A stretch of DNA of 64,000 nucleotides, from positions 7,955 to 71,954 of the forward strand of contig JBDRSV010000005.1 in the NCBI GenBank assembly GCA_043824495.1. The letters run 5' to 3'. The DNA is from Candidatus Aenigmatarchaeota archaeon. Lineage in GTDB: Archaea > Aenigmatarchaeota > Aenigmatarchaeia > QMZP01. The translations under genes and the position numbers were made by a program. A model generated the notes under the pieces. It ran no database searches, was not told where the DNA came from, and saw nothing but the letters and a program-made list of their open reading frames with translations. Positions 1,121 to 57,179 of the stretch are shown here, piece by piece. The number at the start of each line of letters is the position of its first letter. The first letter of the stretch is position 1.

Positions 1121-1146
1121 ATATCCCTTTAAATTGACAATATAAA
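1121..1146 (+). repeat. Cassette 3'-flank motif, copy A: ATATCCCTTTAAATTGACAATATAAA
   Basis: One of four copies in the window, each 23/26 identical to this one. It lies between the last gene of cassette 1 and the mcm start. Confidence 0.85.
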
Positions 1147-1263
1147 ACACCTAAGAGTCTTGGTTACCTCATGGCCCTAAAGATATTCGACGATTGGACC
1201 TTGAATCCTTGCACATCTACATGTGTGCGTTATTCGCCGAAAAGTTCTTTTTGAGTGCATGGT

Positions 1264-1485
1264 CTAGAGAATCAGTACGAGAAGTCCTGATAACGCGGCA
1301 ATAATTTCGCACCAAAAGCCGACTATCAGGAATGAGATGGCGTCGCCTCTAATGACATACGCTGTAGAATAGTTCCTGATACAGACAGAACTCCGTGACT
1401 TTTTGTCTTCTCTTTTACCAAGAACCATGAAAACGAACCCGGCAAGCAAGAAGACTGCGATGCCGATCAATGCTACTATCTTCAT
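1264..1485 (-). CDS. small two-TM membrane protein (73 aa from MKIVALIG)
   Basis: ORF track 1264..1527. The start was moved to the ATG preceded by GAGAGGTGA. Two hydrophobic segments are present. Confidence 0.4.
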   Translation of the reverse strand: MKIVALIGIAVFLLAGFVFMVLGKREDKKSRSSVCIRNYSTAYVIRGDAISFLIVGFWCEIIAALSGLLVLIL

Positions 1486-1599
1486 TTCTTTCACCTCTCT
1501 TCGTTTCTCCCTTTCGTTCAAAACCAAAAGACGAGCGGATGTTTATCAACATCATATGGCATGTTTCAAGTGCCTAGAAACTCGTCGTGTTCTTTTCTT

Positions 1600-2463
1600 C
1601 TAGCGTTTTAGGAAGACCCACTCCTTGTCGCCGACAATGATCTTGTCGTTGTGGCTTAAAATGACACTTCCATCACGATCCACAGGGATTCCGTTGACCG
1701 TGATACCCGAACTTCCATTCATATTCCTGAAAATCCATTCATCAGCATCCCCATCCTTATTGACTCTCTTGAGGATTTGAGCATGGATTCCGCCGTCGTT
1801 GAGATCCCTGGTGTCACCAACTCCAATTTCCGAGCCCTTGATGTAGTAGTCGGTGCGGACGGTGAAGAAGTCATCGCCCTCCTGCATTAGCATCGGATTT
1901 ATCATGAGGCCCTTGTCCACACGGTCTAGGAACAGCTTCAGATCCGTGACCAACAGATGACATTTGAGATGTTGTAACATGTCGTAGAGGTCCTCGATTT
2001 CTACCCGGCTCATTAAGAGTGTCACTACCCTGTAGATTTCGGAAAATGTCACACTGTCCGATACCGCCATCTGAGAAACATCGTCGCGGCTGAGAGGTGT
2101 GGGTTCGGGCGTTATGAAAATTGTGTAGTCTCCGAATGAGAGGCAAGTCTCTTCGCCGCTCCGTACCCATATCCGATTCGAAATGATGTCGTGATTTCCG
2201 TTAATCCTCAGGTCAGGTATACAGTGGTCGATGGCTGCCAGACATGAGCCTGATGGGGTCACGAATATCTTGAACAACGGTGGTTCGATGGCGCTGTTAT
2301 GATCGCCTCTGGCGGCTTCTTCATCGAGCTTGACATCTTGGTTATGGATCATTCCATTTCCGCAGCCAATCCAGAGGAACTGCCCCCGACAGAGAGTCCT
2401 TTTTTCAGGAACCACATTCTCTCTTTTAAATCCTTTTCGAAGTACTCCAATTGTAAATATCAT
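1600..2463 (-). CDS. FHA-domain protein (C-terminal FHA, possible second N-terminal FHA-like domain)
   Basis: C-terminus reads GSEIGVGDTRDLNDGGIHAQI...NGSSGITVNGIPV...LSHNDKIIVGDKEWVF, which fits the FHA pattern. GGGAGG lies upstream of the ATG. Confidence 0.6.
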   Translation of the reverse strand: MIFTIGVLRKGFKRENVVPEKRTLCRGQFLWIGCGNGMIHNQDVKLDEEAARGDHNSAIEPPLFKIFVTPSGSCLAAIDHCIPDLRINGNHDIISNRIWVRSGEETCLSFGDYTIFITPEPTPLSRDDVSQMAVSDSVTFSEIYRVVTLLMSRVEIEDLYDMLQHLKCHLLVTDLKLFLDRVDKGLMINPMLMQEGDDFFTVRTDYYIKGSEIGVGDTRDLNDGGIHAQILKRVNKDGDADEWIFRNMNGSSGITVNGIPVDRDGSVILSHNDKIIVGDKEWVFLKR

Positions 2464-2521
2464 CTTTACAATTCCTCCCTATGAGATCCCCGATCCGTCG
2501 CCGGGGATCTCTGCCATTTCG

Positions 2522-3484
2522 TTAATTTGTCGGGAAACACGTATTCATTACTGTGTGAAGCCATCCTCCTCCATAGAGATAGTTTCCCACAAGAGTCAGG
2601 CCTCCGATGGCAGGCGGTGTAAGCTTTCTTCTCCACCTAGGATCATCGGGGTCCAGAGAGTTCAAGTGGCTCTCTCTGATGGCGTTCATGAGAATTTCTG
2701 CGCGGCCAGGAATGAGAGCGAGCCTACTCACGTCGGGAAGATATCTCTTTCCCGGGCCCATATCGGAGAAAGGAATGTCGGTATCGGCGGAGACTACAAG
2801 GTCGTGTTTCCACAAGACCTTGTCGAAGACCACTCCGAGAATACGCATGTTTCTGAGAGCATCTGTTATGTCAGTTTCGTCGTGGAGTTCGTGGAAGATA
2901 TGATCCTGAACTGTTCCTTTAACTGTGTCCGAATCTACATTTCCACCGATTCCCCAGCATGCACCAGGATACATTGGAGTTCCACTGCCCCGTCGAGTTA
3001 ATACAAACCCGTCCGGGCATTTGAGCCATAGTACTGGTGCGAGAGGACCTTGGGGTAAAGACATGTTCTCCCGGGTGAATAATTTGCGATACTCGGGTCG
3101 TTGCGTCGCCATGACCTCGGAGAACAACATCTTCTCGACATTGATGGTGGTCGAATTTAGTGGCCAGTTTGTCATCCGGTATTGGATACCGGGATACATA
3201 ATCGGTGTCCAGGAATCGGTTGTGGTCTTTCTTCCCCAGAGTCCATGATGGTGTTCTTCTTCAAAAGGACGGAAGTCCAGAAGAATTTCGCCCTCTGCAG
3301 TGAGCGCCTCAAACTTCGCCAGGACCATGCCGTTCCATATGCTGATCTCGTAAGGCGTCGCCAATTTGGGATACCTTGTCACATGTTCCTGACTGCCGTC
3401 AAACTTCACTATTGATGCAAACGGGACACCTGGTGCCGGCACAGCCCACCATGTAGTTGTCTGTATTTTCTCGGGTAGTTTCAT
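2522..3484 (-). CDS. hypothetical protein, possible degenerate Nudix-like C-terminal half
   Basis: 320-aa ORF in the cassette. The segment PGACWGIGGNVDSDTVKGTVQDHIFHELHDETDI loosely resembles a Nudix box but has the wrong spacing. Confidence 0.5.
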   Translation of the reverse strand: MKLPEKIQTTTWWAVPAPGVPFASIVKFDGSQEHVTRYPKLATPYEISIWNGMVLAKFEALTAEGEILLDFRPFEEEHHHGLWGRKTTTDSWTPIMYPGIQYRMTNWPLNSTTINVEKMLFSEVMATQRPEYRKLFTRENMSLPQGPLAPVLWLKCPDGFVLTRRGSGTPMYPGACWGIGGNVDSDTVKGTVQDHIFHELHDETDITDALRNMRILGVVFDKVLWKHDLVVSADTDIPFSDMGPGKRYLPDVSRLALIPGRAEILMNAIRESHLNSLDPDDPRWRRKLTPPAIGGLTLVGNYLYGGGWLHTVMNTCFPTN

Positions 3485-3507
3485 TCTCGATCTGCCTTTC
3501 TATGATT

Positions 3508-3777
3508 TCACTTCGCTGGCGTTTCGGATTGACTGCCACCGGGCTTAGGAGCGCCATTTGTTGCGATGCTCGCCGGCGATGGGAATGTTCCCTCATGTCC
3601 TCGTCTGAGAGCCGCGTCCAGAATTTCCAGGTGCTCTGACGATCTGTTTTTTGCGATCCATTCACGACATTGCGGGATCGCCGAAGCCTCGACCTGCGAT
3701 AGAATGATGTTGATCAGTTCACTTGCAGGGAGAGCCCCCTTATCCAGGAACTCTTCGAATGTCAGTGTCTTCAGCAT
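3508..3777 (-). CDS. hypothetical 89-aa protein resembling the C-terminal helical domain of the neighbouring FHA proteins
   Basis: GGAGGG SD is present. TFEEFLDKGALPASELINIILSQV...CREWIAKN resembles DTEEFTAMLASRASDEELVLRLLTRV...AAREWMIRI of ORF 5310..5978. Confidence 0.45.
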   Translation of the reverse strand: MLKTLTFEEFLDKGALPASELINIILSQVEASAIPQCREWIAKNRSSEHLEILDAALRRGHEGTFPSPASIATNGAPKPGGSQSETPAK

Positions 3778-3812
3778 TGCAATGCCCTCCAGAAATGTGT
3801 GGGGTGGTCGGA

Positions 3813-4505
3813 CTAGTATTGGGCCGGAGTTTCTATTGTTAGAAGTGTGTTGTACATTTCATCTGGTAGCTTGACATACATCAGGTCCTGAACTCTTTCT
3901 CTTAGGAACCTGACCTTAGGAGTAAGGTCAGTTCCCTTGTCCGACCAGAAGTCGTCTGGATCGAGACAGTTTATTCCGTTATTGATGATGAATTTCATGG
4001 ACCTGAAGAAAGCGTACCGGCTGTTATCTTCGATGAGATTTGCCAGGATGACTTCAGATTTCCAGTCATCTGCCGGAGACAGGACGGAAGTAGAATCCTG
4101 ATTTTCGTATTGCCGGTTGAGTTTATAGCATGTTTCGCTGAGAGTCCAAATGCTTTTCTTGAACTTTTTGGCGGTTCCTCGAATAACCAGTTCCACAACC
4201 TTCAGTGTGGTCTTCGACCCTTCTGACATGCCTTGTGGCATGACGTCTTTGAATTCTTCTTCGAACTGGTTCTTGTAATATCCGAGGCATTTGCTGAGCT
4301 TCGTTCTTGAGCTGTCCGGAAGCAATTCCATCAGGTCGTCGAATGTTTCCAGTACCTCGTCGGTGCGAACATCAACGGTCTGGGCATATGCCTTTTCCGT
4401 ACTCTGTTCCCATGCTGGATTCGGCTTGTCTCCGTCGCCACACGAGATCATGGTCGCGAAGATGATCACGAACAAGACGACCGAGATAGTTCTCTTTGTT
4501 TTCAT
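3813..4505 (-). CDS. bacterial-type lipoprotein (signal peptide plus lipobox)
   Basis: N-terminus MKTKRTISVVLFVIIFATMISCGDG has a lipobox-like MISC. GGAGG SD is present. Confidence 0.6.
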   Translation of the reverse strand: MKTKRTISVVLFVIIFATMISCGDGDKPNPAWEQSTEKAYAQTVDVRTDEVLETFDDLMELLPDSSRTKLSKCLGYYKNQFEEEFKDVMPQGMSEGSKTTLKVVELVIRGTAKKFKKSIWTLSETCYKLNRQYENQDSTSVLSPADDWKSEVILANLIEDNSRYAFFRSMKFIINNGINCLDPDDFWSDKGTDLTPKVRFLRERVQDLMYVKLPDEMYNTLLTIETPAQY

Positions 4506-4609
4506 GTTGCTAACCTCCGTAAACGTGATACAATTCAGTTAATTTCGGTTTCCGACTATCCGAGGTGCATCGGACTTGCACTCGGATTTCTGCATGGAAC
4601 CGCCACGCG

Positions 4610-5179
4610 TCATTCAGGTCGGGATTTGGTGATCTCTTTCAGGATCAGTTCCGTCATTTTGACTTTCCTGGCATGGCTTCTGATTATGGCAACTCGCTCG
4701 TAGATCGGGATTATCTTCCGTGCAGTGTCAGGATGATACTTGCAGAGAAATCCGATGCAAGCAATAACATCATCCTGCAACACTTGTGAGAAAATCATGA
4801 GAGCGAGACGTTCTCCGGAAACTGATCCCTTTGCCAGAGATTCGAACTCGTCCTTGTCGATGAGGGCACGGAACTCGAATTTCAGTTTCCCGGTTGTCAC
4901 GACATCGCCGTTTAGTATTGTACAATCGGCCGAGCCGCATGGCTTGCCATTGATGAATGTCAAGTTTCCCGATGTTTCGTCGTGGATGCATAACTCGTCG
5001 TTGGTCAGTTTGATACTGAAATGTGTATCCTTGAGTCCGAATTTTCCACCTTCTGGTATCGACCATTCGGATTCTGTGGATGTCCCAAAACGTACCGATG
5101 TATCCGGAACTAGATGTAAAGTGGCCTTTCCTTCTTTCGCTCCGGACCAGCGTACTTCTAGAAAGCTCCCCATTGCCAT
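4610..5179 (-). CDS. FHA-domain protein, paralogue of 5310..5978
   Basis: The start was moved to MAMGSFLEVRW (GGAGGG SD), which parallels MAMGRYLNVTW of the neighbour. FHA pattern: FGTSTESEWSIP...HFSI...IHDETSGNLTFINGKP. Confidence 0.6.
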   Translation of the reverse strand: MAMGSFLEVRWSGAKEGKATLHLVPDTSVRFGTSTESEWSIPEGGKFGLKDTHFSIKLTNDELCIHDETSGNLTFINGKPCGSADCTILNGDVVTTGKLKFEFRALIDKDEFESLAKGSVSGERLALMIFSQVLQDDVIACIGFLCKYHPDTARKIIPIYERVAIIRSHARKVKMTELILKEITKSRPE

Positions 5180-5309
5180 GCCCTCCTTCGGTGGTATGTG
5201 TAGTGTTTCATTAACTTTTGTTTTAGTTTCCGGCGAACCCGTAACATTGGAATTGCCCGGGTTTTCTACTGGAACCATCAGCGTCATTCAGGCCGGTTCA
5301 TGTTACCGG

Positions 5310-5978
5310 TCAGTCAGATCCCAGAGTGGATAGATCGTCGTCACCTATGTCTCTTGCTAACGCTCTCTCCGATTTAATTGGGGTCGGAGTACGATCCGCC
5401 GCTTTTTGGATAGCGAGATCTGTCTTATTGATAATGTCGGCACGCGTGATCGCGTTCCCTTCGTGTAAAATGGAGGATGCACGTTCTACGATTCGAATCA
5501 TCCATTCCCGTGCAGCTTGTGGCCTCTTCTCACACAAGACATCAAGACAACTGGGGAAGTCTTGTGTTCTCACTCTTGTGAGAAGTCTGAGAACCAGTTC
5601 TTCGTCACTGGCTCGGCTGGCTAACATGGCAGTGAATTCTTCCGTATCGTAGAGAACATCGAACCAGATTCTGAGTTCTCCGATGCGAATCACGCTTATA
5701 TTGTAGACGTACGTCCCACCGGACTGGACTTTTTCCTCATCCACGAAAGTGCCCGCGTTGGTTCCCAGATCATGGATCCTTAGACACTCGCCGTCATTGG
5801 CCATTGTGATCGAGAAGTGTCTGCCTTTGAAGTCTTCCTCATCAGCCGGAATCAGGAAATCGTCCCCTTCGGATTCCCCGAACACAAGTGTTTGATTCCG
5901 ATCAATTGGAATCATGTTCTCGTCTGCTGATGATGTCCCCTCTGTCCATGTTACATTTAGATAACGTCCCATTGCCAT
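5310..5978 (-). CDS. FHA-domain protein with C-terminal helical domain
   Basis: FGESEGDDFLIP...GRHFSI...IHDLGTNAGTFVDEEKV fits the FHA pattern. GGAGG SD is present. Confidence 0.65.
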   Translation of the reverse strand: MAMGRYLNVTWTEGTSSADENMIPIDRNQTLVFGESEGDDFLIPADEEDFKGRHFSITMANDGECLRIHDLGTNAGTFVDEEKVQSGGTYVYNISVIRIGELRIWFDVLYDTEEFTAMLASRASDEELVLRLLTRVRTQDFPSCLDVLCEKRPQAAREWMIRIVERASSILHEGNAITRADIINKTDLAIQKAADRTPTPIKSERALARDIGDDDLSTLGSD

Positions 5979-6053
5979 GTCCTCCTTCAGATAGATAGCT
6001 ATATTTCAGTTGCCTTCGTTTCAGTGATTAGTTCTTCTATACTTTTCGAATGC

Positions 6054-6596
6054 CTAACCGAAAATTTTACGTGCCATTCCTCGAGCCTCGCGATTTGAGA
6101 GAATAGCTCCCAGTAAAGCAGTTGTCACACACGCCAAGAACGTTAAGACAATTGGATAATAGAGGCTCGTGTTCCATGCAAACATGGGATCACCTGAAGA
6201 ACCTGATCCTACGAAGAGCCAGATGATCCAGAAAATCGCGATCCATGTCAGCCAATTGATGTAGGCAATGTAGATACCCTCACCCAGAAGAAATCTGACA
6301 TAGCCTTCTGGGATAGATGATTCCGACCAATCTCTTTTGAGCATATGTCCTCTCAGTCTATAGAGACGGAATGTTGTGAGAGGTATCATCAGGCTGCAGA
6401 GTTCGATGTAAACTCGTGTCATTTGTAGTTGTCCTGATGTCTCTTGTTCTATCAAGAGATTGCCCAATAGTGCCGCGGGAATGACGATCACCCAGAAATG
6501 CCAGGTGAATCTATCTTTGTTCGAGCGATGTACTAATAGGAAAACCATGGCCAGAACAAGAGAAAAGATTGAGATGAAGATTATGAAGTTGAACAT
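6054..6596 (-). CDS. multi-pass membrane protein, unknown function
   Basis: 180-aa ORF with about 5 hydrophobic helices. AGGAAG SD is present. It is the first gene of cassette 1. Confidence 0.55.
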   Translation of the reverse strand: MFNFIIFISIFSLVLAMVFLLVHRSNKDRFTWHFWVIVIPAALLGNLLIEQETSGQLQMTRVYIELCSLMIPLTTFRLYRLRGHMLKRDWSESSIPEGYVRFLLGEGIYIAYINWLTWIAIFWIIWLFVGSGSSGDPMFAWNTSLYYPIVLTFLACVTTALLGAILSNREARGMARKIFG

Positions 6597-6674
6597 TTTA
6601 TATCTTCCTCGGATAGAGTTCTGTCGGTATACCTCAGACTATGTAAAACACCATACAGAAGTCATTTGATATGA

Positions 6675-6785
6675 CTATTGTTCTGTGTGGTGTTGGTTCC
6701 TAGGTTACAATGCCAATATATCTGCAAGGAAATTTTCCTCAAAGATGTCTAAAGTCAATTGGCGTGAAAGTGTGGAGCATGATAT
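6675..6785 (-). repeat. Cassette 5'-leader module, copy 1 (read on minus strand: ATATCATGCTCCACACTTTCACGCCAATTGAC ... hairpin ... TTGGCATTGTAACCTAGGAACCAACACCACACAG)
   Basis: The core TCATGCTCCACA/TTCACGCCA matches 39325..39359 at 21 identities with 1 mismatch and 1 indel. The downstream TTGGC..GTA..TAGG..CAAC block is also shared. Confidence 0.7.
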
Positions 6786-6873: not shown

Positions 6874-6936
6874 ATAGAAATTACTTGATTTTCAATAGAA
6901 TTTACTTGATTCTAAATAGAAATTACTTAGAATTAT
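6874..6936. repeat. Three tandem 21-nt repeats (ATAGAAATTACTTGATTTTCA-like)
   Basis: Copies start at 6874, 6895 and 6916 with period 21, and there is a partial copy just upstream. The array lies between cassette 1 and the 3' end of gene 6933..7658. Confidence 0.7.
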
Positions 6937-7658
6937 ACAAATTCTTTCTGTGCCAGTTCATAGGCATCTGGCGTGCCTATATCAATCCACTTTCCATCTA
7001 GAATAAATCCGTATGTTGGTGTTTTCTGTCTTAACCAGTCTATAAAGAAACCCATTGTATCTTTATGGTTTCCTTCACTCAGATATTCTTCTATCAATTT
7101 TTTTGTGTTTTCAGGGAAGAAATAAACTGCAGCTGAAGCTAAAGTGCTTTTAGGATTTTCAGCTTTTTCAACAAAGTCTATTATTTTTTTATTGTCATCG
7201 AGTTGAACTGTTCCCATTTTCCTTGCTTCTACCATACTTACGTTGCTTAATCCAACAATTGGTGTTTGTTTCTCTTTGTAAAACATGAAAATTTCTTGGA
7301 GATTGTCTTGGAATATATTATCTCCACCAACAACCAAGAAATTACCATCAACAGATTCTTGGTTCATAAAATACTTCAGAGCACCAATAGAACCTAATTT
7401 TTCTTCTTCTGTTGCAACTGGTTCTACAATAAGCTGGATATCCTTTGAATATTCAAACCCAGAGAGCCATTGTTCCATTATAGGACCAAATTTAGAGTTT
7501 GTAGAAACATATACTTTTTCTAGATCCAAATGCTCCAATTTCCTTAGAGTTCTCTCTAACAAAGTCTTATTGGCTACCTTGAGTAGTGGTTTGGGTGTAT
7601 TTTCTGCTATTTTGCCCATTCTTTTTGCATGTCCACCAGCTAATACCAAAGCTTTCAT
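6933..7658 (-). CDS. sugar-phosphate nucleotidyltransferase (NTP_transferase family)
   Basis: N-terminus MKALVLAGGHAKRMGKIAENTPKPLLKV carries the typical G-rich nucleotidyltransferase signature. Confidence 0.8.
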   Translation of the reverse strand: MKALVLAGGHAKRMGKIAENTPKPLLKVANKTLLERTLRKLEHLDLEKVYVSTNSKFGPIMEQWLSGFEYSKDIQLIVEPVATEEEKLGSIGALKYFMNQESVDGNFLVVGGDNIFQDNLQEIFMFYKEKQTPIVGLSNVSMVEARKMGTVQLDDNKKIIDFVEKAENPKSTLASAAVYFFPENTKKLIEEYLSEGNHKDTMGFFIDWLRQKTPTYGFILDGKWIDIGTPDAYELAQKEFV

Positions 7659-7839
7659 ATTGGGTAATAATTGTATATGAACTAATTAATGTTTTGCGTA
7701 ACTACCGCCAATCACGAGGGAGGGCAAACCTTTATATACCATAGATTTAATTTATAAGATACCCATAAAACGATCGCAGTGAGACGGCTATATAATCTAG
7801 CATCTAGCTTGTTTAGTGATCATGTACGGAGGTAATCGT

Positions 7840-8073
7840 ATGGCAGACGTAGATTTCAAAACTGTAAAAGCTGAAGAAATTAAATTCGGTAAGAACAACT
7901 TCCTTGAAGTTGCAAGGAAAAAGGCTGTTACCGAAGAGGGTGAGACTGAATTCATTGCAATATCAAGAGGATTTTTCTCACCAGATGGATCCAAAAGATT
8001 CAAGAAGTCAATTGCACTTCCTGATGAAAAGGAAATCCGCGATTTCGTATCCAAAAAAATATTAGAACTGTAA
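7840..8073 (+). CDS. small PC4/YdbC-like ssDNA-binding-fold protein (tentative)
   Basis: The start was moved to MADVDFKTV (GGAGGT SD). The pattern FGKNNFLEVARKK...EFIAISRGFFSPDGSKRFKKSIALP resembles PC4-like proteins. Confidence 0.45.
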   Translation: MADVDFKTVKAEEIKFGKNNFLEVARKKAVTEEGETEFIAISRGFFSPDGSKRFKKSIALPDEKEIRDFVSKKILEL

Positions 8074-8212
8074 AAACAACAAAATTGGTTAATACAAGAG
8101 ATGATGAAGAACACGCTGCGAAGCTGACTTAGTCTCTGTTTTTCTTATTATTTTTCCTGTATCACATGTAGCTATTTATTGCAGTGTTCATAAGAATTAA
8201 CATAGTGATTTT

Positions 8213-10981: not shown

Positions 10982-11070
10982 AAAACATAATGTTATCGTT
11001 AAATTTATAAATTGACATCACGATTTCAGAGAAGAGCGCTTTTGCTCATAGGTAATTCTTTGTAAATCAA

Positions 11071-13262: not shown

Positions 13263-13370
13263 TATCATATTCCACTCTCAAAAAATCTACAATTTGTATC
13301 AGATAAACAAAGCGTTTAATCTGAAAATGTCTTCATGGACCCATAAATCAACGCACACAAAACACGAAAT
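13263..13370 (+). repeat. Cassette 5'-leader module, degenerate copy 2
   Basis: TATCATATTCCACTCTCA resembles TATCATGCTCCACACTTTCA. It is followed by the hairpin CAGATAAAC-aaagc-GTTTAATCTG and a CAACGCACACAAAAC block resembling CAACACCACACAGAAC of copy 1. Confidence 0.45.
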
Positions 13371-13522
13371 AACACAAAGTGCATTGTTAGCTTAAGCTAT
13401 GGAGAATGAGAAGCCTGAGAGTGATTTTTTCTGTCTTCTGTAAAGAAATTACCAGACTTTTGTCTTAGACGAGAGTCTTTCGCCAATAGAAAAAAATGAT
13501 TCATTGATATGGGGGGTGAACA

Positions 13523-14353
13523 ATGATATCGTGTAAATCAAAACAGGTGGATTCAACACGGCTTGACGCTAGGCCGAAAAAGCGACGAATGCCAGTTCAG
13601 GTCTCGCGTGCCTGGGATGCGTATTTCAGCTCCGGCGACCCTGGTGTTCGTCAGAACCTTCTCAATCATTACCTGCCGCTCGTATGCAATGTGGCGGGTA
13701 GGATGGCTCTAGGCTTTCCCAAAGCTGTTGAGCTGAATGATTTGATTTCCACAGGCACGATCGGCTTGTGCCAGTCCTTAAAGAACTTCGATCCTAAACG
13801 AGGCGTCAAGTTCGAAACCTTTGCGGTTCCCCGAATCCGTGGTGCAATTCTCGACGAGATGCGCAGCTTGGATTGGGTGCCGCGTTCCACACGCTCGAAA
13901 GCACGTAAGATTGATCGAGTCACAACTCAGATCGAACAACAACAGGGACGTGTGTCAATGCATAATGAACTCGCTGTCCTTCTGAAGATCCCGCTGGACG
14001 ATCTGCTAGTGGTGCTGACAGATATTTCGGCATCAAGGCTTATGTCCTTGGATGAATTGGTATATCGAGAGGAGGACAATAGGCAGGTTCCGAGAGTCGA
14101 GACACTCGAACTTCCTGTGAGAAGAGATGCCTTGAGAGAGGTCGAACGCAGAGAGCTAAAGGTATTCCTCATTAACGCCATTTCTACTCTCAACGAGCAA
14201 GAGACACATGTCATTGGCTTATACTACTACGATGAGCTTACCATTCGTGAGATTGGCGAACTCATGAATCTCTCGGAATCCCGAATCTCGCAGGTTCACA
14301 CTAGGTCTGTGGAAAAGTTGCGAAGAATGGTGCGCGATAGATTCGGATACTGA
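13523..14353 (+). CDS. fliA: bacterial FliA/WhiG-type (sigma-28) RNA polymerase sigma factor
   Basis: Region 2 reads LNHYLPLVCNVAGRM...DLISTGTIGLCQSLKNFDPKRGVKFETFAVPRIRGAILDEMR. Region 4 reads LNEQETHVIGLYYYDELTIREIGELMNLSESRISQVHTRSVEKLR. GGGGGGTGA SD is present. Confidence 0.85.
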   Translation: MISCKSKQVDSTRLDARPKKRRMPVQVSRAWDAYFSSGDPGVRQNLLNHYLPLVCNVAGRMALGFPKAVELNDLISTGTIGLCQSLKNFDPKRGVKFETFAVPRIRGAILDEMRSLDWVPRSTRSKARKIDRVTTQIEQQQGRVSMHNELAVLLKIPLDDLLVVLTDISASRLMSLDELVYREEDNRQVPRVETLELPVRRDALREVERRELKVFLINAISTLNEQETHVIGLYYYDELTIREIGELMNLSESRISQVHTRSVEKLRRMVRDRFGY

Positions 14354-14443
14354 ACAACCAACTGTAAATAACGACGCTCATGCCGGGTTTTGTCCGGGCG
14401 GAGAAAGAAAATACAAATGAGAACGAATGGATAAGGAGGGCAA

Positions 14444-14620
14444 ATGCTCCTATGTCAGGAGTGTCACCAAAAACGGGGATGTTATTGGGGTATTCACCCA
14501 CACACTACCAATGGGTCTTGTGGTTGTTGTGGTACGCAAACAGCTTGCGTCGAATGTAATACCCTAGAAACATCTTCACGTCCGATCTCTATGGAAGCCA
14601 CCGAGAATTTCATCGGCTAA
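14444..14620 (+). CDS. 58-aa cysteine-rich protein (not in ORF track, below its length cutoff)
   Basis: AAGGAGGG lies 4 nt before the ATG. Translation MLLCQECHQKRGCYWGIHPHTTNGSCGCCGTQTACVECNTLETSS... contains 9 Cys. Its position right after a sigma gene suggests a zinc-binding partner or anti-sigma factor, which is inference only. Confidence 0.45.
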   Translation: MLLCQECHQKRGCYWGIHPHTTNGSCGCCGTQTACVECNTLETSSRPISMEATENFIG

Positions 14621-14643
14621 GAAATACCAAGCTCGAGAATCAT

Positions 14644-14670
14644 GTGTGTCCCATAACACACTTGGTTCTT
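14644..14670 (+). terminator. hairpin GTGTGT-cccata-ACACAC followed by a T-rich tract
   Basis: A 6-bp perfect stem lies immediately after the last cassette-2 ORF and runs into TTGGTTCTTTATATT. Confidence 0.4.
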
Positions 14671-14694
14671 TATATTGTCTAATTAGAGGGATAT
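14669..14694 (-). repeat. Cassette 3'-flank motif, copy B (reverse complement: ATATCCCTCTAATTAGACAATATAAA)
   Basis: 23/26 identical to copy A. It ends 2 nt before the ATG of backbone ORF 14697. Confidence 0.85.
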
Positions 14695-39084: not shown

Positions 39085-39249
39085 ATGGAACAATCAACAG
39101 TATGCAGTCAGTGTGGAGAGCTCGCAAGACCTCCAAAGAGCTGCAATATGTGTGGTGCCATTGTGTGTGGCAAGTGTATAGATCATAATATCGGCCTTTG
39201 TAAATTTTGTAGAGCAAAGGCAAAACACCCAAGACCACCTAAGTTTTAG
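39085..39249 (+). CDS. 54-aa zinc-ribbon protein (below ORF-track cutoff)
   Basis: MEQSTVCSQCGELARPPKSCNMCGAIVCGKCIDHNIGLCKFCRAKAKHPRPPKF contains four CxxC pairs. Confidence 0.35.
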   Translation: MEQSTVCSQCGELARPPKSCNMCGAIVCGKCIDHNIGLCKFCRAKAKHPRPPKF

Positions 39250-39324: not shown

Positions 39325-39430
39325 ATTCATCATGCTCCACAATTCACGCCATTTAAGTCTTTTGACTGATTATTACCAAAATATCTGGTAATAGTTTGGC
39401 TTTTGTATTTTAGGTAAAACAACGGAAGAC
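39325..39430 (+). repeat. Cassette 5'-leader module, copy 3 (ATTCATCATGCTCCACAATTCACGCCATTTAAGTC ... hairpin ATTACCA-aaatatc-TGGTAAT ... TTTGGCTTTTGTATTTTAGGTAAAACAACGG)
   Basis: See 6675..6785. The conserved blocks have the same 37-nt spacing, and that interval holds a different inverted repeat in each copy. Confidence 0.7.
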
Positions 39431-39487
39431 TACTAAAGTCTTCACATCATAGAGAAACGCTTAGTTTTGAGAATATGGGGGTGTGAA

Positions 39488-39832
39488 ATGCGTACAGAAA
39501 CATTATGGACAGGCATGATCTCCGAAGAATATGGTTTCAGATGTGGTCCAGTTCCAGAGATCTATGAATTCAAAGTGACAAGAGAAGGAGGAATCTGCTT
39601 CGTCCAACAGAACAAGGGACCAACTGGACTCGTGACACTAAACGTAGAACCTATTACAGGGAAAGTCAAACTCAAGACAGGGGATGTTATTGAGACTCCG
39701 GACAAATGGGTAAGGTACGTCTTACAGGAACATCAATCGGCAGTGGGAATCGAGATCCCTGTCCGTCAGGACCTCGAAGAAATAGACCCTGAAGACGATC
39801 TTCGTACCTTACCAACACCAGGCTGGTTCTGA
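39488..39832 (+). CDS. hypothetical protein
   Basis: The start was moved to the ATG preceded by GGGGGTG. 114 aa. Confidence 0.5.
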   Translation: MRTETLWTGMISEEYGFRCGPVPEIYEFKVTREGGICFVQQNKGPTGLVTLNVEPITGKVKLKTGDVIETPDKWVRYVLQEHQSAVGIEIPVRQDLEEIDPEDDLRTLPTPGWF

Positions 39833-39904
39833 GTTTGGTGTAAACTGGGAGAGCAGAGGGAAAGCAAATTATAGATGAATTTGAACCAGTAAAGGAGTAC
39901 AACC

Positions 39905-40489
39905 ATGCCGTTCAAGATTATCCTAGTTGATGGAGACGGTGCCGGAGTGAGCGGTGTCGATATCCAACTCAATTTCCATGGTGTAAAGCCGGATGAAAGA
40001 TTCACAGTAGGCACAACTGACGCAAACGGTGAGTTGGAACTGGCAGTCACCACCGTTGACGATGTAGAACTGAAGAGCGCAATCTTTGATATCTCGTTGG
40101 ACGGTGAGAATTTCATGGAATGCGCGACCTTCACCTACGTTCCTGGTGAATCTCTGAAACTGAGTAAAATTCCAGTTTCAATGGCCACTTCGCCAGACAG
40201 TTTCCAAGTTCTGATCTTACAGGAAAACGACAATACACCAGTAGAAGGTGCAAGTGTCGCGATGCTCAAGGGAGGCAAGGTCGTTTGGAGCACACTGACA
40301 AGTGAGCATGGCCTCGCAACCATAGACAACGCGCAAACCGAAAAATGTGAGTTGTGGGTCCAAGGTTCTCTCGTTAAGATCCGTGATGAACTCCATGATG
40401 ACAGAGGAACCATTCGCATTGTTCATGTGGGCGAGCCCGATGGAACTACATGGGCACTTGTCACAGGGATCGATGCCGACGAAGAATAA
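39905..40489 (+). CDS. hypothetical protein with two beta-sandwich-like (carboxypeptidase-regulatory/PEGA-like) repeats, paralogue A
   Basis: AAGGAGTACAACC-ATG leader. The pattern VDGDGAGVSGVDIQL....TTDANGELEL recurs. Confidence 0.55.
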   Translation: MPFKIILVDGDGAGVSGVDIQLNFHGVKPDERFTVGTTDANGELELAVTTVDDVELKSAIFDISLDGENFMECATFTYVPGESLKLSKIPVSMATSPDSFQVLILQENDNTPVEGASVAMLKGGKVVWSTLTSEHGLATIDNAQTEKCELWVQGSLVKIRDELHDDRGTIRIVHVGEPDGTTWALVTGIDADEE

Positions 40490-40563
40490 TCATATGTCCT
40501 ACGACAAAGAATTCATTGAATGGGAGTTATAATCACACCCCACTAACCAGAAGGAGTACACCC

Positions 40564-41196
40564 ATGTACAGAGTTTCGTTAGGGAGGGATGGAGTTAAAG
40601 TTGAGCTCGATTGCTCCAAAACAACACCGGACACCGGAACCGCTGAAGCCGTCACGACTGCGAATGGCGGCGTCGCCGAGTTTCAGGTCACCGTGAATGG
40701 AACCGAAATTGACGGCGAATTAATCACATTGAAGCTGAACGGCGCCGAATTTGCGGACGGAGCGCAGTTCACTTACACACCCGGTGAAATCCTGGAACTT
40801 CATGAGGTTCCTGCTGTCACAGTGACATCACCCGCAGAATTCCGTGTCCGGGTTCTGAGGGTAGCGACAGATGCCGAAACGGTTCCAGTACCTGTGCAGG
40901 ACGTATCTGTTCTGATCACCGAGTCAGATAGCAGCAAAATTCTCCTGAACACACGGACGGACGCCAGGGGATTTGCTATTATGGTAGAACCAACCGGTGA
41001 AGAGATCAGGATCTTTGTCGACGGTGTGGATCTTGATATCGATCCTCCCTACGGTGACGCAGGAACCGTTCACGTCGTGTTCGTGGACGATGTCGACGAG
41101 GGGACCAACTGGGTTCTCACAACCCCGCTTGGTGTCAAGGTCGAGGATGCCGGCGACTTAGCCGACAAAACCAAAGAAGTGTCGCAGCAGTCGTAA
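40564..41196 (+). CDS. paralogue B of 39905..40489
   Basis: The start was moved to MYRVSLGRDG behind a nearly identical AAGGAGTACACCC-ATG leader. It is colinear with paralogue A: FTY(V/T)PGE.L.L..(I/V)P, then a second repeat ending T.W.L(V/T)T. Confidence 0.55.
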   Translation: MYRVSLGRDGVKVELDCSKTTPDTGTAEAVTTANGGVAEFQVTVNGTEIDGELITLKLNGAEFADGAQFTYTPGEILELHEVPAVTVTSPAEFRVRVLRVATDAETVPVPVQDVSVLITESDSSKILLNTRTDARGFAIMVEPTGEEIRIFVDGVDLDIDPPYGDAGTVHVVFVDDVDEGTNWVLTTPLGVKVEDAGDLADKTKEVSQQS

Positions 41197-41269
41197 TTCA
41201 CGGCGACACCACACAAACTCGTGCCGGGGATGGGTTCATGCCTGTCCTCGGCTCCTGAAGGAGATGAAC

Positions 41270-41434
41270 ATGGGATTCTGGTTAAGATCTGCTGATGATG
41301 GTTCAGAAGGTCTTTCGGTTCTCGAGATAGTGGGAGTTGCTATCATCGCTGGAATCGTGTTGGTGGCAGCTATTAGTGTGCCTATTATCATTTTTTCCCC
41401 TAAGATCAATAATCAGAGAAACAAAACCATATGA
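41270..41434 (+). CDS. 54-aa Flp/Fap-pilin-like small hydrophobic protein (tentative)
   Basis: AGGAG SD is present. In MGFWLRSADDGSEGLSVLEIVGVAIIAGIVLVAAISVPIII..., the G-x4-E followed by a hydrophobic helix resembles Flp prepilins. Confidence 0.35.
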   Translation: MGFWLRSADDGSEGLSVLEIVGVAIIAGIVLVAAISVPIIIFSPKINNQRNKTI

Positions 41435-41460
41435 GAAGATGTGAATTTTGCTCTGATTGT

Positions 41461-41486
41461 TTTATATTGTCTACTTAAAGGGATAA
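41461..41486 (-). repeat. Cassette 3'-flank motif, copy C (reverse complement: TTATCCCTTTAAGTAGACAATATAAA)
   Basis: 23/26 identical to copy A. It lies 49 nt upstream of tRNA-Ser. Confidence 0.85.
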
Positions 41487-41535
41487 AATAGAATGAAAAA
41501 TAACTTAAATACGGCAGTGTATATTCTTCTTATAT

Positions 41536-41617
41536 GCCGGGATGGCAGAATGGTTAATGCGCACGACTGGAAATCGTGTGCCCTTTGGGCTTGGGGGTTC
41601 GAATCCCTCTCCCGGCG
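41536..41617 (+). tRNA. tRNA-Ser (anticodon GGA), class II with long variable arm
   Basis: Hand fold: acceptor GCCGGGA/TCCCGGC, anticodon arm CACGA-CTGGAAA-TCGTG, variable arm GCCC-ttt-GGGC, T arm GGGGG-TTCGAAT-CCCTC. Confidence 0.85.
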
Positions 41618-41759
41618 TTTCTTTATTTAATAAGGTCACAGAAATAAACAAAAGATCTAAATAATGTATTTTAATGTGCCCTTACAGAAAATGTATGCAT
41701 GGGCACCAAATTAAACAAAAATAGATAATTTTATATATTATTGTGCCCATATATAAAAT

Positions 41760-54951: not shown

Positions 54952-54984
54952 AAATAGAAAGAATTGAAAGTCTTTTTAGTGTTA

Positions 54985-57081
54985 CTATCTCCTACAAGTT
55001 GGGGCTGGATCGCCTGCGAATAAGTGATCAATCATTATAGCCAAATCCAATGCAGTTGGAAAACCATCCCCATCTAAGTCAGCAAGCCATGGAGGATCAG
55101 GCAGAGGTTCTCCTGCGAACAGTATGTCAATAAGTTTTGCAAGATCTAACGCTGTGAGGAAGCCGTCATAGTCTAAGTCTCCGCATACAATATTGTTGAC
55201 AGTTATAGTAACTTCCTGTTCATCATAAAGTTCAGTAGTGTCTGTAACTCTGAATGTAACATTATATACTCCAGAATCATTAAATGTTGGAGTCCAGTTG
55301 AATAATCCAGTTTGTGGATCAAATGAGTATGGGCTTGGTAGGCCTTCATCTATTTCGAAGGATAAATCATCTTCATTAGCATCTGTAGCATTTAATTGAA
55401 TAACTACTGAATATGTTTCATAAACTTCTTGATTGGCAATAGTATCAAGAACGGGTGGTGTTGGACCAATTATTGCAGTTATCAATTGTGAGTCATTGTT
55501 GTTTGAATTATTCATTTCTATTTTTACTAGATCCTCATCAACTCTAGCTTCTATTAGATGATCACCTATACCAGAAACTATGTGAAGTAGTACAAACTGT
55601 TTAAGGTTGTATTTGTTGATATTTTGGAAATCTTCAACAAGAAGTTCATCATTATCATATATTTTGGTTGAGATGTTTTTCATATTAACTCCTCCAATAT
55701 TGTTAATAGTAACAGTGATTGTAATTTCTTCGCCATCAATTGGATTTTCATTGGAAATGTTAATTGTTGGAATTAGATCACCAAACCAGTCAAAGTCGCT
55801 GTATGGCATAGTAGGAGTTTGATTACTGTTTGATATATTTCTTGCACCAAAACCATGACCATCTACTCCACCACCAGAGTAATAATTCCACATTGGATCA
55901 GTTTGTGTCAAATAGTCTGTGTGTCCCATTGCTCTACCAAAAATATTAATCACAAAAGCGTCAGTGTAATAGATGTATGGTGGACCCAAGCTGAATGTTC
56001 TATCAAGTGTATCTTTGTTGTCATTTAATATTTTGTAGAATCGTTCTCTATCCATACCTTCTTCATATTCCAGTTTAGATAATAAATGACCTGTAATGTC
56101 GTATCCGTGAGATCTCTGAAGCTCTCTGTCATATATAGTAGTATCATGATAATCATTTGCAACATAAGCTGCCCATTGATACCCTGAGAATCCGTTTTCT
56201 AAATATGTATCAGCTGTTTCTTGGTTAATTGCACCGGATATAGCATTAACATTATACATGTGATGTTCAGCAAAGCCTTCTGTCAACCATGATCTAGTGT
56301 ATATTGGATATGGGTTAATAGAGTGAGACGCTTCATGGAGTGCCGTATTCATGTATGGCCACCAATCACCTAATTCACCAGTGTTGTTGTAATATGTGGT
56401 CCCATTCACGTAATATGGCTTATTACAACCAGTCTTATACATTGGATCAGAGAAAACAACATTAGAGTGTGTAGGAGAAGCATTTCCACCGTAACAGGCT
56501 GCAGGATGTCCGTAATTATATATCTCTAAAGGAACTCCAAACCATCCTTTTGAACTCCAACCAGTTATATTCTTTAGAATTTCATACCTTGGTACGAAAT
56601 TATCCCAGAAAGCGTCTAATGTTGCCTGGTTGTTCGAATAGAAAACACTTTCGATGTAAATGTCAAGTGAAACATTTCCTTGATCATCAAAATATGGTTT
56701 ATGCACAAAGGTTGATTCTGGAGAATTTATTTCAACGGGTGTTTTTATAATATTTTTAAGGGGCTTTTCTTTTGTTTTTTCTAAAGGCTGTCCTTCTGGA
56801 TATTGAAGCTCATCAACAACAATTGGGGTTTCTACACCATCAAGATTAACAATACCCTTTGCAAAATCAATTTCAAGAATAGAACCCTCTCCTGTTACAA
56901 CAGTCTTGACGTTTGAGCTATCTCCATTAAGCATCAAAAAGCTGTCAGTTAAATCAATTGGTTCTACACTTCTTATTTGAGCAGCTGCTTGACCAAAGAA
57001 AAATAATGTTACTCCTGTCATTATAGAAAATATGATTAAACTCATTAAATATTTCTGAATCTTGTCATTCATGATTAACAT
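54985..57081 (-). CDS. secreted HExxH protein with Ig/cadherin-like domain and C-terminal dockerin repeats
   Basis: A signal peptide is present, along with ALHEASHSINP and an Ig-like block (GVYNVTFRVTDT). The C-terminus carries GDLDYDGFLTALDLAKLIDILF and ADLDGDGFPTALDLAIMIDHLF. Confidence 0.65.
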   Translation of the reverse strand: MLIMNDKIQKYLMSLIIFSIMTGVTLFFFGQAAAQIRSVEPIDLTDSFLMLNGDSSNVKTVVTGEGSILEIDFAKGIVNLDGVETPIVVDELQYPEGQPLEKTKEKPLKNIIKTPVEINSPESTFVHKPYFDDQGNVSLDIYIESVFYSNNQATLDAFWDNFVPRYEILKNITGWSSKGWFGVPLEIYNYGHPAACYGGNASPTHSNVVFSDPMYKTGCNKPYYVNGTTYYNNTGELGDWWPYMNTALHEASHSINPYPIYTRSWLTEGFAEHHMYNVNAISGAINQETADTYLENGFSGYQWAAYVANDYHDTTIYDRELQRSHGYDITGHLLSKLEYEEGMDRERFYKILNDNKDTLDRTFSLGPPYIYYTDAFVINIFGRAMGHTDYLTQTDPMWNYYSGGGVDGHGFGARNISNSNQTPTMPYSDFDWFGDLIPTINISNENPIDGEEITITVTINNIGGVNMKNISTKIYDNDELLVEDFQNINKYNLKQFVLLHIVSGIGDHLIEARVDEDLVKIEMNNSNNNDSQLITAIIGPTPPVLDTIANQEVYETYSVVIQLNATDANEDDLSFEIDEGLPSPYSFDPQTGLFNWTPTFNDSGVYNVTFRVTDTTELYDEQEVTITVNNIVCGDLDYDGFLTALDLAKLIDILFAGEPLPDPPWLADLDGDGFPTALDLAIMIDHLFAGDPAPTCRR

Positions 57082-57088
57082 TAACAGA

Positions 57089-57110
57089 AAGATTTATATT
57101 GGTTTTAAGA
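57089..57110 (+). repeat. Left direct repeat bracketing cassette 4: AAGATTTATATTGGTTTTAAGA
   Basis: Eighteen consecutive nt are identical to 60761..60778. After a 1-nt indel, AAGA matches again. Confidence 0.75.
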
Positions 57111-57153
57111 CGCGTTTCTATTCATTGTTTTCTTATTAGAAAATCTTGAACAT

Positions 57154-57179
57154 ATATCCCTTTTATTTGACAATACAAA
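57154..57179 (+). repeat. Cassette 3'-flank motif, copy D: ATATCCCTTTTATTTGACAATACAAA
   Basis: 23/26 identical to copy A. It lies 72 nt from the start of backbone gene 54985..57081. Confidence 0.85.

Follow-up and report, generated by a model that had tools for sequence, protein, structure and literature searches.

A phylum-wide 26-bp element at the downstream edge of foreign gene blocks in Candidatus Aenigmatarchaeota, tentatively read as a terminator or boundary element

DPANN archaea hold many bacterial genes, and the locus considered here raises the question of where and how such DNA is held. In the stretch of Candidatus Aenigmatarchaeota DNA that we analysed (64 kb, hereafter the window), the composition profile shows GC-rich blocks at approximately 1150-6600, 13300-14670, 39450-41460, and 57180-60500, with a GC of 0.44-0.51 versus about 0.35 elsewhere, and a copy of a single 26-nt motif stands at the end of each block. 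The four blocks look bacterial, the backbone around them is archaeal (for example archaeal GluRS and GatD/E), and the motif beside the blocks may reveal the sites at which, and the means by which, these tiny archaea hold foreign DNA.

A preliminary description, made by eye, had reported four copies of the motif (A to D in order of position), with B, C, and D each identical to A at 23 of 26 positions, and had considered a chance origin very unlikely; it put forward no function. A pattern search of the window allowing up to three mismatches returned exactly these copies, at 1121-1146(+), 57154-57179(+), 14669-14694(-), and 41461-41486(-) in the orientation used there, with three mismatches to copy A in each of the other copies. 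Chance proved as poor an explanation as had been supposed, with no match of any kind in 100 dinucleotide-preserving shuffles of the window. A PWM trained on 19 instances scored the four copies at 41.6-42.5 bits and the next best window site at only 11.8 bits; hence there are no weaker hidden copies in the window, and the scan by eye had overlooked none. Flank alignment restricts the conserved stretch to approximately 26-28 nt. Only two tRNAs in the window reached an Rfam gathering score, and the motif matched no known RNA family. Below, the motif and its strands are read in the direction TTTnTATTGTCnAnTnAnAGGGATA, with an optional trailing T, which gives it two unlike sides, the T side and the GGGATA side.

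Copy A (1121..1146, minus strand; TTTATATTGTCAATTTAAAGGGATAT) turns its T end toward cassette A (1147..6770, minus strand), where about eight co-directional ORFs (GC ~0.47-0.50), three of which encode FHA domains, run without exception toward the motif; its GGGATAT end faces a backbone gene with a TATA box ~14 nt further on and an ATG 43 nt away. Copy B (14669..14694, plus strand; TTTATATTGTCTAATTAGAGGGATAT), abutted by a hairpin at ~14641-14668, closes cassette B (13277..14668, plus strand), which encodes a FliA/WhiG-type sigma-70 factor (13523-14353; 68-71% identity to Zixibacteria FliA) and a small Cys-rich ORF (~14445-14620). Judging by spacing, the ATG of the backbone ORF at 14697 could be a leaderless mRNA start served by the TATA-like TTTATATT within copy B. 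Copy C (41461..41486, plus strand; TTTATATTGTCTACTTAAAGGGATAA) ends cassette C (39342..41460, plus strand), with three co-directional ORFs (GC 0.46-0.52), Ig-like/MG3-like domains, and bacterial-type Shine-Dalgarno sites, and is followed by a TATA-like box and by a tRNA-Ser (41535-41618) that begins 49 nt downstream. At copy D (57154..57179, minus strand; TTTGTATTGTCAAATAAAAGGGATAT), the hairpin GGGGATTAATGGTCTACAGTGATGGACCATCCCC (~57180-57213 on the plus strand) abuts the T end, and cassette D (57180..60661, minus strand; GC ~0.50) encodes a thiolase (59300-60505) and, at 57219-59303, a protein of 694 aa that contains an enoyl-CoA-hydratase domain. The ORFs of all four blocks are transcribed toward the motif, and the layout first described, with the motif at the 3′ end of GC-rich cassettes in one orientation, holds in four of four cases in both directions. 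The gaps of 43, 2, 49, and 72 nt to the next backbone feature (A to D) were also correct, except that the feature at copy C is a tRNA and not a protein gene. At copies A, C, and D, a TATA box separate from the motif stands between it and the backbone gene or tRNA.

Several cassettes also have a recognizable 5′ boundary, opening with a promoter and then TCATGCTMCACA. In cassette C the element TCATGCTCCACA (39330..39341, plus strand) lies 21 nt past the TATA box TATTTAAATT, and in cassette A the same element (6771..6782, minus strand) lies ~175 nt before the first cassette ORF. The two resemble each other over ~38 nt (approximately 34 of 40 nt identical), and one indel between them means that they share no common reading frame. 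Cassette D has a probable, weaker counterpart (TCATGCTTCCCA; 60662..60673, minus strand), ~20 nt past a TATA-like box and ~158 nt before the first ORF, and for cassette B nothing better was seen than a doubtful TCATATTCCACT at 13265-13276.

The motif is an element of the phylum Ca. Aenigmatarchaeota and is not private to the window. A strict pattern matched 16 loci in 185,579 species genomes, 15 of them in Aenigmatarchaeota MAGs with a GC of 0.34-0.62, and a further 43 metagenome loci carry the motif, many tied by homology to Aenigmatarchaeota MAGs. One copy (L020) lies on a bacterial contig with SmpB, tmRNA, and T9SS genes, and a few lie inside genes (L009/L042, L054, L057). The proposed tie to composition boundaries extends beyond the window, where 25 of 34 loci (p = 0.018), and 12 of 14 AT-rich loci, have the higher GC on the GACAATAnAAA-facing side, and where sharply delimited GC-rich blocks stop at the motif in L003, L006, L015, L025, L038, and L040; the tie is not absolute, as the motif is also present without a visible composition shift, for example after a Zn-ribbon-HTH gene. 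Genes on the GGGATA side are syntenic between lineages and those on the T side are not; the motif travels with the conserved backbone side, not with the cassette. In roughly 40-45% of copies the GGGATA-side neighbor is a convergent gene ending 6-50 nt away, and co-oriented genes downstream of the motif often begin 37-45 nt away, with their own TATA box between.

On the T side, the motif is bordered by RNA-type hairpins and gene ends. In 47 non-redundant copies, the 45 nt that run up to the T end had a mean fold of -12.9 kcal/mol, compared with -6.5 for shuffled sequence and -4.5 for the other side, and folds of -10 kcal/mol or lower occurred in 68% on the T side versus 6% on the other. The stem usually ends 0-3 nt from the motif's TTTnTATT, and stem sequences are mutually unrelated; in the window, the hairpin is strong at copies B (-13.3) and D (-17.2) and weak at A and C. 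Of 36 cases, 28 have the more stable hairpin on the strand that reads toward the motif (p = 2e-4; 39 versus 22 G-U pairs), and this asymmetry, as in an intrinsic terminator, points to a hairpin of RNA-level type. The T-side neighbor is mostly a co-oriented gene ending 20-150 nt before the motif, giving the intrinsic-terminator order of co-oriented gene, stable stem-loop, and T-rich tract. T-side gene content varies, and its GC is often higher; in L011 the 3′ end of a tRNA-Met takes the place of the hairpin.

A candidate reader of the motif is a 94-107 aa Zn-ribbon-HTH "transposase-like" protein (Zn-HTH), which adjoins it in seven motif-ascertained groups. Among loci ascertained by the protein, the site recurs at the Zn-HTH gene in four of six, including lineage variants (TATCCCGTnnAnnnGACAGA), as expected of an operator: in L089, L090, L063, and L065 the stop codon is followed at 7-40 nt by the motif or a lineage variant, and the gene's promoter is overlapped by a degenerate copy. 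The gene is single-copy, with a conserved neighborhood of DUF87 (HerA-like), proteasome, and aCPSF1 genes. Motif copies around it are usually direct repeats, not inverted; in L058, two inverted copies flank a gene for a 94-aa protein that has no catalytic domain. The 58 Zn-HTH homologs are ~91-119 aa long, save one of 177 aa and one of 58 aa, and a catalytic domain is absent from all of them. Weak matches of the protein, all below threshold, were to IS6/IS1 transposase N-termini and the IS1/IS1595 zinc-binding domain, and a fold search weakly listed the DNA-binding domains of the ISCth4, Mos1, and Mu transposases.

Our tentative reading, to which we give somewhat less than an even chance, is that the 26-mer is a protein-read terminator or boundary element closing accessory-gene slots. 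The phylum-specific DNA element TTTnTATTGTCnAnTnAnAGGGATA(T) would close a transcription unit on being read by a protein. T-side transcripts would end in an RNA hairpin or a tRNA 3′ end, with the eight bases that open the motif (TTTnTATT) next to it acting as T-tract, and the remaining ~17 conserved bases, including a partial 19-bp dyad TTTATATTG-T-CAATTTAAA, would most likely be the binding site of the Zn-ribbon-HTH protein. Its binding there would either strengthen termination or insulate the host promoter that comes next, which usually begins 10-45 nt past the GGGATA end. Conservation of the sequence, its restriction to the lineage, the adjacent hairpin with its strand bias, the unequal synteny and GC of the two sides, and the link to the Zn-HTH gene are observations; termination, protein binding, and the insulating role are what we infer from these patterns. 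The motif would thus be part of the conserved backbone and the T-side DNA a variable compartment, here filled by four blocks of putative bacterial origin, at least three of which would be read toward the motif from a promoter of archaeal type whose start (TCATGCTMCACA) is conserved. Several observations weigh against this reading. TTTnTATT is a weak T-tract, and the 17 further invariant bases are superfluous for a terminator; archaeal RNA polymerase terminates at oligo-T with no need of a hairpin, and archaeal polymerases are not known to require one. Only ~10% of the window's transcription units bear the motif, and in at least five loci the T-side neighbor is apparently a divergent gene despite the hairpin. 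As to the reader, no homolog of the Zn-HTH gene was found in the 64-kb window, and L091 and L061 have the gene with no motif copy after its stop codon.

Termination alone also leaves unaccounted for the presence of foreign DNA next to each of the four window copies and to no other site. It is on this pairing, always in one orientation, that the main rival, an att-like capture site, draws as a possible but rather doubtful explanation. A site-specific reaction would attach hairpin-ended foreign DNA to the T end of the chromosomal 26-mer, with TCATGCTMCACA as the other junction, in the manner of a mirrored integron (attI x attC) or of targeted IS26-type integration, and the Zn-HTH protein would be the site-recognition subunit. 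Such joining would suit the sharp GC steps repeated at the motif in six other loci and a cargo that seems indiscriminate, such as a flagellar sigma factor in an archaeon. The cassettes are two-ended, with a 5′ element as well as the motif, yet their far boundary has no second motif copy or direct repeat; the candidate binding protein is similar to transposase DNA-binding domains, yet no integrase, transposase, or other recombinase was found among the scanned ORFs of the window or next to the motif in relatives. L017 has the motif and a gene where the syntenic window site has neither, but no empty site was found, and the only apparent precise breakpoint, in the pair L013/L046, did not hold up: the two share protein homology through the hairpin region, which leaves precise junctions unproven. 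Integrons with attC sites have been reported from Aenigmatarchaeota MAGs (PMC9668308), but attC core sites are absent here, and the strand bias of the hairpin indicates a role at the RNA and not the DNA level. Carried further, capture would imply that Aenigmatarchaeota possess a gene-capture platform of dispersed, one-orientation slots for bacterial DNA filled by site-specific insertion, which we regard as unlikely. Each slot would open with an archaeal promoter and the transcript start TCATGCTMCACA and close with the hairpin and the 26-bp site; a transposase-derived Zn-ribbon-HTH protein would recognize that site, and the platform, integron-like yet unrelated to integrons, would serve transfer from bacteria to archaea.

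It is improbable that the motif is a relic end, that is, the solo terminal repeat of an extinct or trans-mobilized lineage-specific transposon, with the Zn-HTH protein as a domesticated InsA-like end-binder and the foreign DNA brought in by past transposition or cointegrate events. InsA of IS1 binds IRL, and the degenerate copy over the Zn-HTH promoter is IS1-like; the sub-threshold IS6, IS1, and IS1/IS1595 matches, the weakly listed transposase domains, and the inverted pair of L058 agree with such an origin. However, a catalytic domain in none of 58 homologs, a single-copy gene in a conserved neighborhood, flanking copies that are usually direct repeats, and window copies with no inverted partner do not, and the motif is too well conserved across genomes of 34-62% GC to be a decaying relic. 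There is similarly little to recommend a promoter or operator of the GGGATA-side backbone gene, composed of a TATA box (TTTATATT) and a conserved regulator site, to which the cassettes would be adjacent by accident. TTTATATT is indeed TATA-like, the ATG at copy B lies 28 nt after the TATA start, compatible with a leaderless mRNA, co-oriented genes often start 37-45 nt past the motif, and the Zn-HTH gene of L058 and L061 has the motif 80 nt upstream. But a gene or TSS ~25 nt past the TATA, as in an archaeal core promoter (BRE-TATA-Inr), fits copy B only, copies A, C, and D are followed by a separate TATA box, and where the GGGATA-side neighbor is convergent there is nothing to promote; the T-side hairpin, gene-end bias, and GC asymmetry would go unaccounted for. 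An artefact, whether a chimeric metagenome assembly of bacterial and archaeal reads or a chance repeat, is highly improbable, even though the window and all relatives are metagenome assemblies and matches occur on one bacterial contig and inside a few genes. No shuffle produced a copy, and a second assembly (Logan) of sample SRR26275509, which also carries exact window proteins, has cassettes A (in part), B, and C. The same architecture recurs in MAGs of many studies, each block would require two chimeric junctions, and bacterial genomes are without the motif, which therefore could not seed a mis-join.

Within this 64-kb stretch, every foreign block has the 26-bp element at its precise downstream limit, and the element is conserved across a phylum with genomes of 34%-62% GC. 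Accompanied by a candidate protein that would bind it and by an upstream element to match, it makes the question of bacterial genes in DPANN testable. If the element is a capture site, it would define a cassette platform of a new class, separate from integrons; if it is a terminator or insulator, it would be an archaeal boundary element of unusual length that depends on a protein, and it could help to locate accessory DNA in these genomes.

As an attC, dif, or IS end, the motif shows none of the defining features tested for these classes beyond a fixed position 3′ of an ORF. With integron attC/attI sites, including those of archaeal integrons (PMC9668308), it shares a short conserved site 3′ of promoter-less, co-oriented foreign cassettes, a hairpin of variable sequence after the ORF, an upstream host promoter reading into the cassette, and genes that cross domains of life; as for attC, the motif follows the cassette ORF immediately and in one fixed orientation in four of four window cases and in most relatives. 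Unlike in integrons, conservation is confined to the backbone side and does not extend into the hairpin, which is short, perfectly paired, and RNA-biased, and there are neither arrays nor IntI: attC cores (RYYYAAC / GTTRRRY) were absent from 150 nt of the T side, the motif, and 60 nt of the GGGATA side at the four window copies, which lie 13-27 kb apart with no recombinase among the scanned ORFs, whereas attC sites are expected as at least two less than 4 kb apart and/or with a neighboring IntI tyrosine recombinase. IS1 InsA and IS6-family N-termini with their terminal inverted repeats offer a Zn-ribbon with HTH, a promoter overlapped by its own presumed site, and a site of ~25 bp; unlike them, the Zn-HTH family has no catalytic domain, its gene is chromosomal, single-copy, and syntenic, and direct repeats predominate. 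Target duplications were not seen, no window copy has a partner above 12 bits, and the sole inverted pair is that of L058. Xer/dif sites and pdif modules (28-bp sites) are of similar length and bound discrete accessory modules, unlike which there is one motif per module in place of a flanking pair, with no more than a partial dyad within its left 19 nt (at best 8/9 around T10 in the variant found at copy A, and 6/9 in B, C, and D); the 11-6-11 layout of inverted ~11-bp arms and a 6-8 bp spacer is absent from the motif. Intrinsic terminators (hairpin and U-tract), or roadblock and factor-assisted termination, differ in that the T-tract here precedes 17 nearly invariant, phylum-wide bases and serves only a minority of transcription units, and they share with the motif a GC-rich stem-loop followed by a T-rich tract past the stop codon and a stem-loop that is stronger on the transcribed strand.

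A pattern search of the window that allowed up to three mismatches returned four matches to the 26-nt motif, exactly where the preliminary description had placed it: copy A at 1121-1146 (-), B at 14669-14694 (+), C at 41461-41486 (+) and D at 57154-57179 (-), with the motif read as TTTnTATTGTCnAnTnAnAGGGATA(T), an orientation in which the cassettes lie upstream. None of 100 dinucleotide-preserving shuffles of the window gave a match. Scored with a position weight matrix built from 19 instances, the four copies reached 41.6-42.5 bits, whereas nothing else in the window exceeded 11.8 bits, so that the window holds no degenerate extra copies and the earlier statement that there was no fifth copy stands. 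Similarity among the copies is limited to about 26-28 nt in flank alignments, and a partial dyad, TTTATATTG-T-CAATTTAAA, spans the left 19 nt of the motif, matching at 8/9 positions in copy A and at 6/9 in each of B, C and D. GC content is ~0.35 over most of the window and 0.44-0.51 in four blocks, approximately 1150-6600, 13300-14670, 39450-41460 and 57180-60500 (cassettes A, B, C and D). Every block terminates at one motif copy and all its ORFs point toward that copy, which agrees with the position at cassette edges and the direction of transcription originally proposed. The distances of 43, 2, 49 and 72 nt from the motif to the neighboring backbone feature had likewise been given correctly, although the feature at copy C is a tRNA-Ser and not a protein gene.

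The backbone is archaeal, encoding archaeal-type GluRS, GatD/GatE and a ThrRS with an archaeal editing domain, while the blocks look bacterial. Their products include three FHA-domain proteins, Ig-like proteins, one complete sigma-70 factor, and a thiolase together with an enoyl-CoA-hydratase protein, and Shine-Dalgarno sites precede their ORFs. An identity as rRNA or structured RNA was rejected for these blocks, given that Rfam yields two tRNAs only and that they carry long ORFs with Pfam domains. The sigma factor (13523-14353, +; 276 aa) is an intact protein of the FliA/WhiG bacterial flagellar type in an archaeal genome. Its closest named relatives are Zixibacteria proteins (68-70% identity), and unnamed metagenome proteins reach 71%. 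In Zixibacteria, fliA lies mid-operon (flhA-flhF-flhG-fliA) in DNA of 62% GC and its homology with the window is confined to the ORF, which weakens the idea that whole bacterial transcripts were retro-integrated. The GC content of the window gene, about 0.50 vs 0.62 in its Zixibacteria relatives, suggests amelioration following transfer. What use an archaeon would have for a flagellar sigma factor is not obvious, so at least that cargo looks indiscriminate. Also in cassette B is a small Cys-rich, CxxC-rich ORF of 58 aa (14445-14620, +). GC-rich thiolase + enoyl-CoA-hydratase blocks end at the motif on two unrelated Aenigmatarchaeota contigs, at 57219-60505 in the window and at 8504-9352 and 11701-12903 in L038, one of the motif-bearing loci outside it (all handled as L0xx); with protein identities of only 24-30%, the two seem to have arisen by separate captures of similar functions.

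The strict degenerate pattern TATCCCTNTNANTNGACAATANAAA, with 20 fixed bases, was found at 16 loci in 185,579 species (one genome each). Fifteen of these belong to Ca. Aenigmatarchaeota MAGs with GC contents of 0.34-0.62, and the sixteenth lies inside a Planctomycetota gene. A metagenome collection gave 43 further loci, many of them homologous to MAG loci or bearing archaeal markers (Rad50, archaeal DnaG, SMC). The matches inside genes (L009/L042, L054 and L057) are probably chance or foreign. At L020 (252-653 (-) and 767-1216 (-)), the match is on a contig with tmRNA, SmpB and T9SS genes, so this locus, once considered archaeal with bacterial cargo, was excluded as bacterial; either the match there is due to chance or the motif, or DNA bearing it, also occurs in an FCB-group bacterium. 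A viral or plasmid origin was rejected, as the strict pattern was absent from IMG/VR viral contigs and a relaxed pattern occurred at chance level only.

Synteny between lineages extends over the GGGATA-side genes but not over the T-side genes. The T side is the GC-richer one in 25/34 non-window loci (p=0.018) and in 12/14 AT-rich loci. In L003, L006, L015, L025, L038 and L040, the motif marks the end of GC-rich blocks with sharp boundaries, 0.6 to >3 kb in length. T-side genes in relatives are varied and often bacterial-like (MFS, ECH, NUDIX, HEAT). In blastn comparisons homology seemed to begin exactly at the motif; however, a small ORF of L046 is homologous to the C-terminus of an L013 ORF. 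Homology thus traverses the hairpin region, and the argument that the motif forms a precise junction was withdrawn. The sole syntenic relative of the window, L017, matches 6933-13155 and has a motif and a 260-aa gene where the window has neither, and it is too distant to define junctions. No usable empty-site comparison was obtained, the flanking 250-aa gene being an orphan, and exact-protein look-ups returned matches from the same sample only. L017 (1640-1690) also shares a conserved element found at 8090-8140 (+) in the window, after a small 77-aa gene (AGAGATGATGA...CTGA...TCTCT, with a C box, a D box and a terminal stem), for which Rfam gave only sub-threshold matches to the archaeal C/D-box sRNAs sR3 and sR23.

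On the T side, most neighbors are co-oriented genes with their ends 20-150 nt ahead of the motif, and the 10 nt directly before the motif are pyrimidine-rich. Among 47 non-redundant copies, the 45 nt preceding the motif had a mean fold energy of -12.9 kcal/mol, compared with -6.5 for shuffled sequences and -4.5 for the other side, and folds of -10 kcal/mol or below occurred in 68% vs 6% of copies on the T side and the other side, respectively. In most cases 0-3 nt separate the end of the stem from the first T of the motif, and stem sequences are unrelated among copies; in L011 the 3' end of a tRNA-Met takes the hairpin's place. Hairpins were more stable on the motif-ward strand in 28/36 cases (p=2e-4), with 39 vs 22 G-U pairs, and this strand asymmetry and G-U excess point to a role at the RNA level. 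Within the window, hairpins are strong at B and D and weak at A and C, and hairpin-plus-T sites elsewhere are rare. On the GGGATA side, the neighboring gene is co-oriented, in which case it has its own TATA box 10-45 nt past the motif, or convergent, in which case it ends 6-50 nt away.

At the opposite end of the cassettes, a 5' element, TCATGCTCCACA, is present in cassette A (6771-6782, -) and in cassette C (39330-39341, +), where it lies about 21 nt past a TATA box. These two are identical at about 34/40 nt with one indel which breaks any common reading frame, hence what is conserved is the nucleotide sequence. Cassette D has TCATGCTTCCCA at 60662-60673 (-), and cassette B only a doubtful copy. 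In L013, L046, L060, L023 and L040, TATA-N20-45-TCATGCTMCAYA precedes the T-side block, and L006 has a close variant. Allowing one mismatch, the element occurred 18 times on the T side in forward orientation vs 7-9 times in each of three control classes. The first cassette ORF begins 100-250 nt after it, and several blocks therefore occupy a "slot" that runs from an archaeal-type promoter with a conserved start to the hairpin and motif. A TTCACGCC box was rejected as a component because its count across loci equals chance expectation, and k-mer enrichment revealed no general second motif. Nearby, the interval between the cassette A element and the NTP-transferase gene contains a tandem repeat at 6874-6928 (21-nt unit ATAGAAATTACTTGATTCTAA, 2.6 copies, 88% matches), and a 54-aa Cys-rich, zinc-ribbon-like ORF (39085-39249, +) lies just upstream of the cassette C element.

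In seven locus groups, a gene of 94-107 aa lies just past the GGGATA end, convergent with the T-side transcripts, and encodes a Zn-ribbon plus HTH protein (Zn-HTH), a candidate reader of the motif. The gene is single-copy, has a conserved neighborhood of DUF87 (HerA-like), proteasome and aCPSF1 genes, and carries a degenerate motif copy at its promoter. Among loci ascertained by the protein, L089, L090, L063 and L065 have the motif or a lineage variant (TATCCCGTnnAnnnGACAGA) 7-40 nt past the stop codon, and L061 and L091 have none after it. The variant after the gene in L063 (10340-10364) and L065 (10337-10361), TATCCCGT..A...GACAGA, comes from more distant lineages, one at 63% GC, and may reflect site-protein co-evolution. 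In L058 (1277-1701), three copies surround the Zn-HTH gene, which encodes 94 aa: an inverted copy 80 nt upstream of it, a degenerate copy that overlies the promoter and a third copy 12 nt past the stop. No homolog is encoded in the window, whose source contig, at 153 kb, is longer. In L061 (MAG JADHWJ01, contig 2), a 1.2-kb stretch at 8700-9897 has 53% GC within a 38% GC locus and ends in a hairpin; this abuts a motif copy located immediately 5' of the Zn-HTH gene. The stretch contains no ORF >114 aa, matches nothing in Rfam even at E=1, has no homolog among the other loci, and could represent a structured RNA of unknown type or a foreign fragment in decay.

We tentatively favor, at somewhat under even confidence, the view that the motif is a candidate protein-read boundary element that closes transcription units. 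Such an element would join a hairpin formed in RNA to a T-tract and a conserved putative binding box; it would be fixed in the backbone, and accessory or foreign DNA would lie on its T side. This would account for the hairpin, the strand and gene-end biases, the asymmetric synteny, the closeness of the following promoter and the association with the Zn-HTH gene. Left unexplained is the fact that bacterial DNA adjoins all four window copies and no other site; nor does this view fit comfortably with archaeal polymerases, which are known to terminate independently of hairpins. The main rival, in which the motif is an att-like capture site, would account for that 4/4 association and also for the constant orientation, the slots with two defined ends and the apparently indiscriminate cargo. 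We consider it rather unlikely: no recombinase was found in the window or next to the motif in relatives, and there was no empty site or second repeat, including any attL/attR-like copy at the far cassette boundaries in the window. To the broader idea that the motif signals a new platform for capturing genes transferred across domains we give a minority but still substantial chance.

It is improbable that the motif is a relic transposon end. In its favor, the Zn-HTH protein gave sub-threshold matches to IS6 and IS1 transposases, in their N-terminal parts; against it, the 58 homologs of the protein are nearly all short, with no long, catalytic relative and no catalytic domain among them. The AlphaFold model of the protein is confident (pLDDT 82) and has no significant match in the PDB; the weak matches include transposase DNA-binding domains. 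A plain promoter or operator has similarly low standing with us, since the GGGATA-side gene either has its own TATA box or is convergent, so that the motif is not simply a promoter. An artefactual link between motif and cassettes is very improbable, given that cassettes A (in part), B and C recur in the Logan assembly of SRR26275509.

With respect to known systems, the motif has neither attC nor dif features and matches no Rfam family, and a literature search on its sequence and on Aenigmarchaeota cassettes gave nothing relevant except a paper on archaeal integrons (PMC9668308). Matching no known site class among those compared, it is in our rating a cassette-boundary or terminator-like element.
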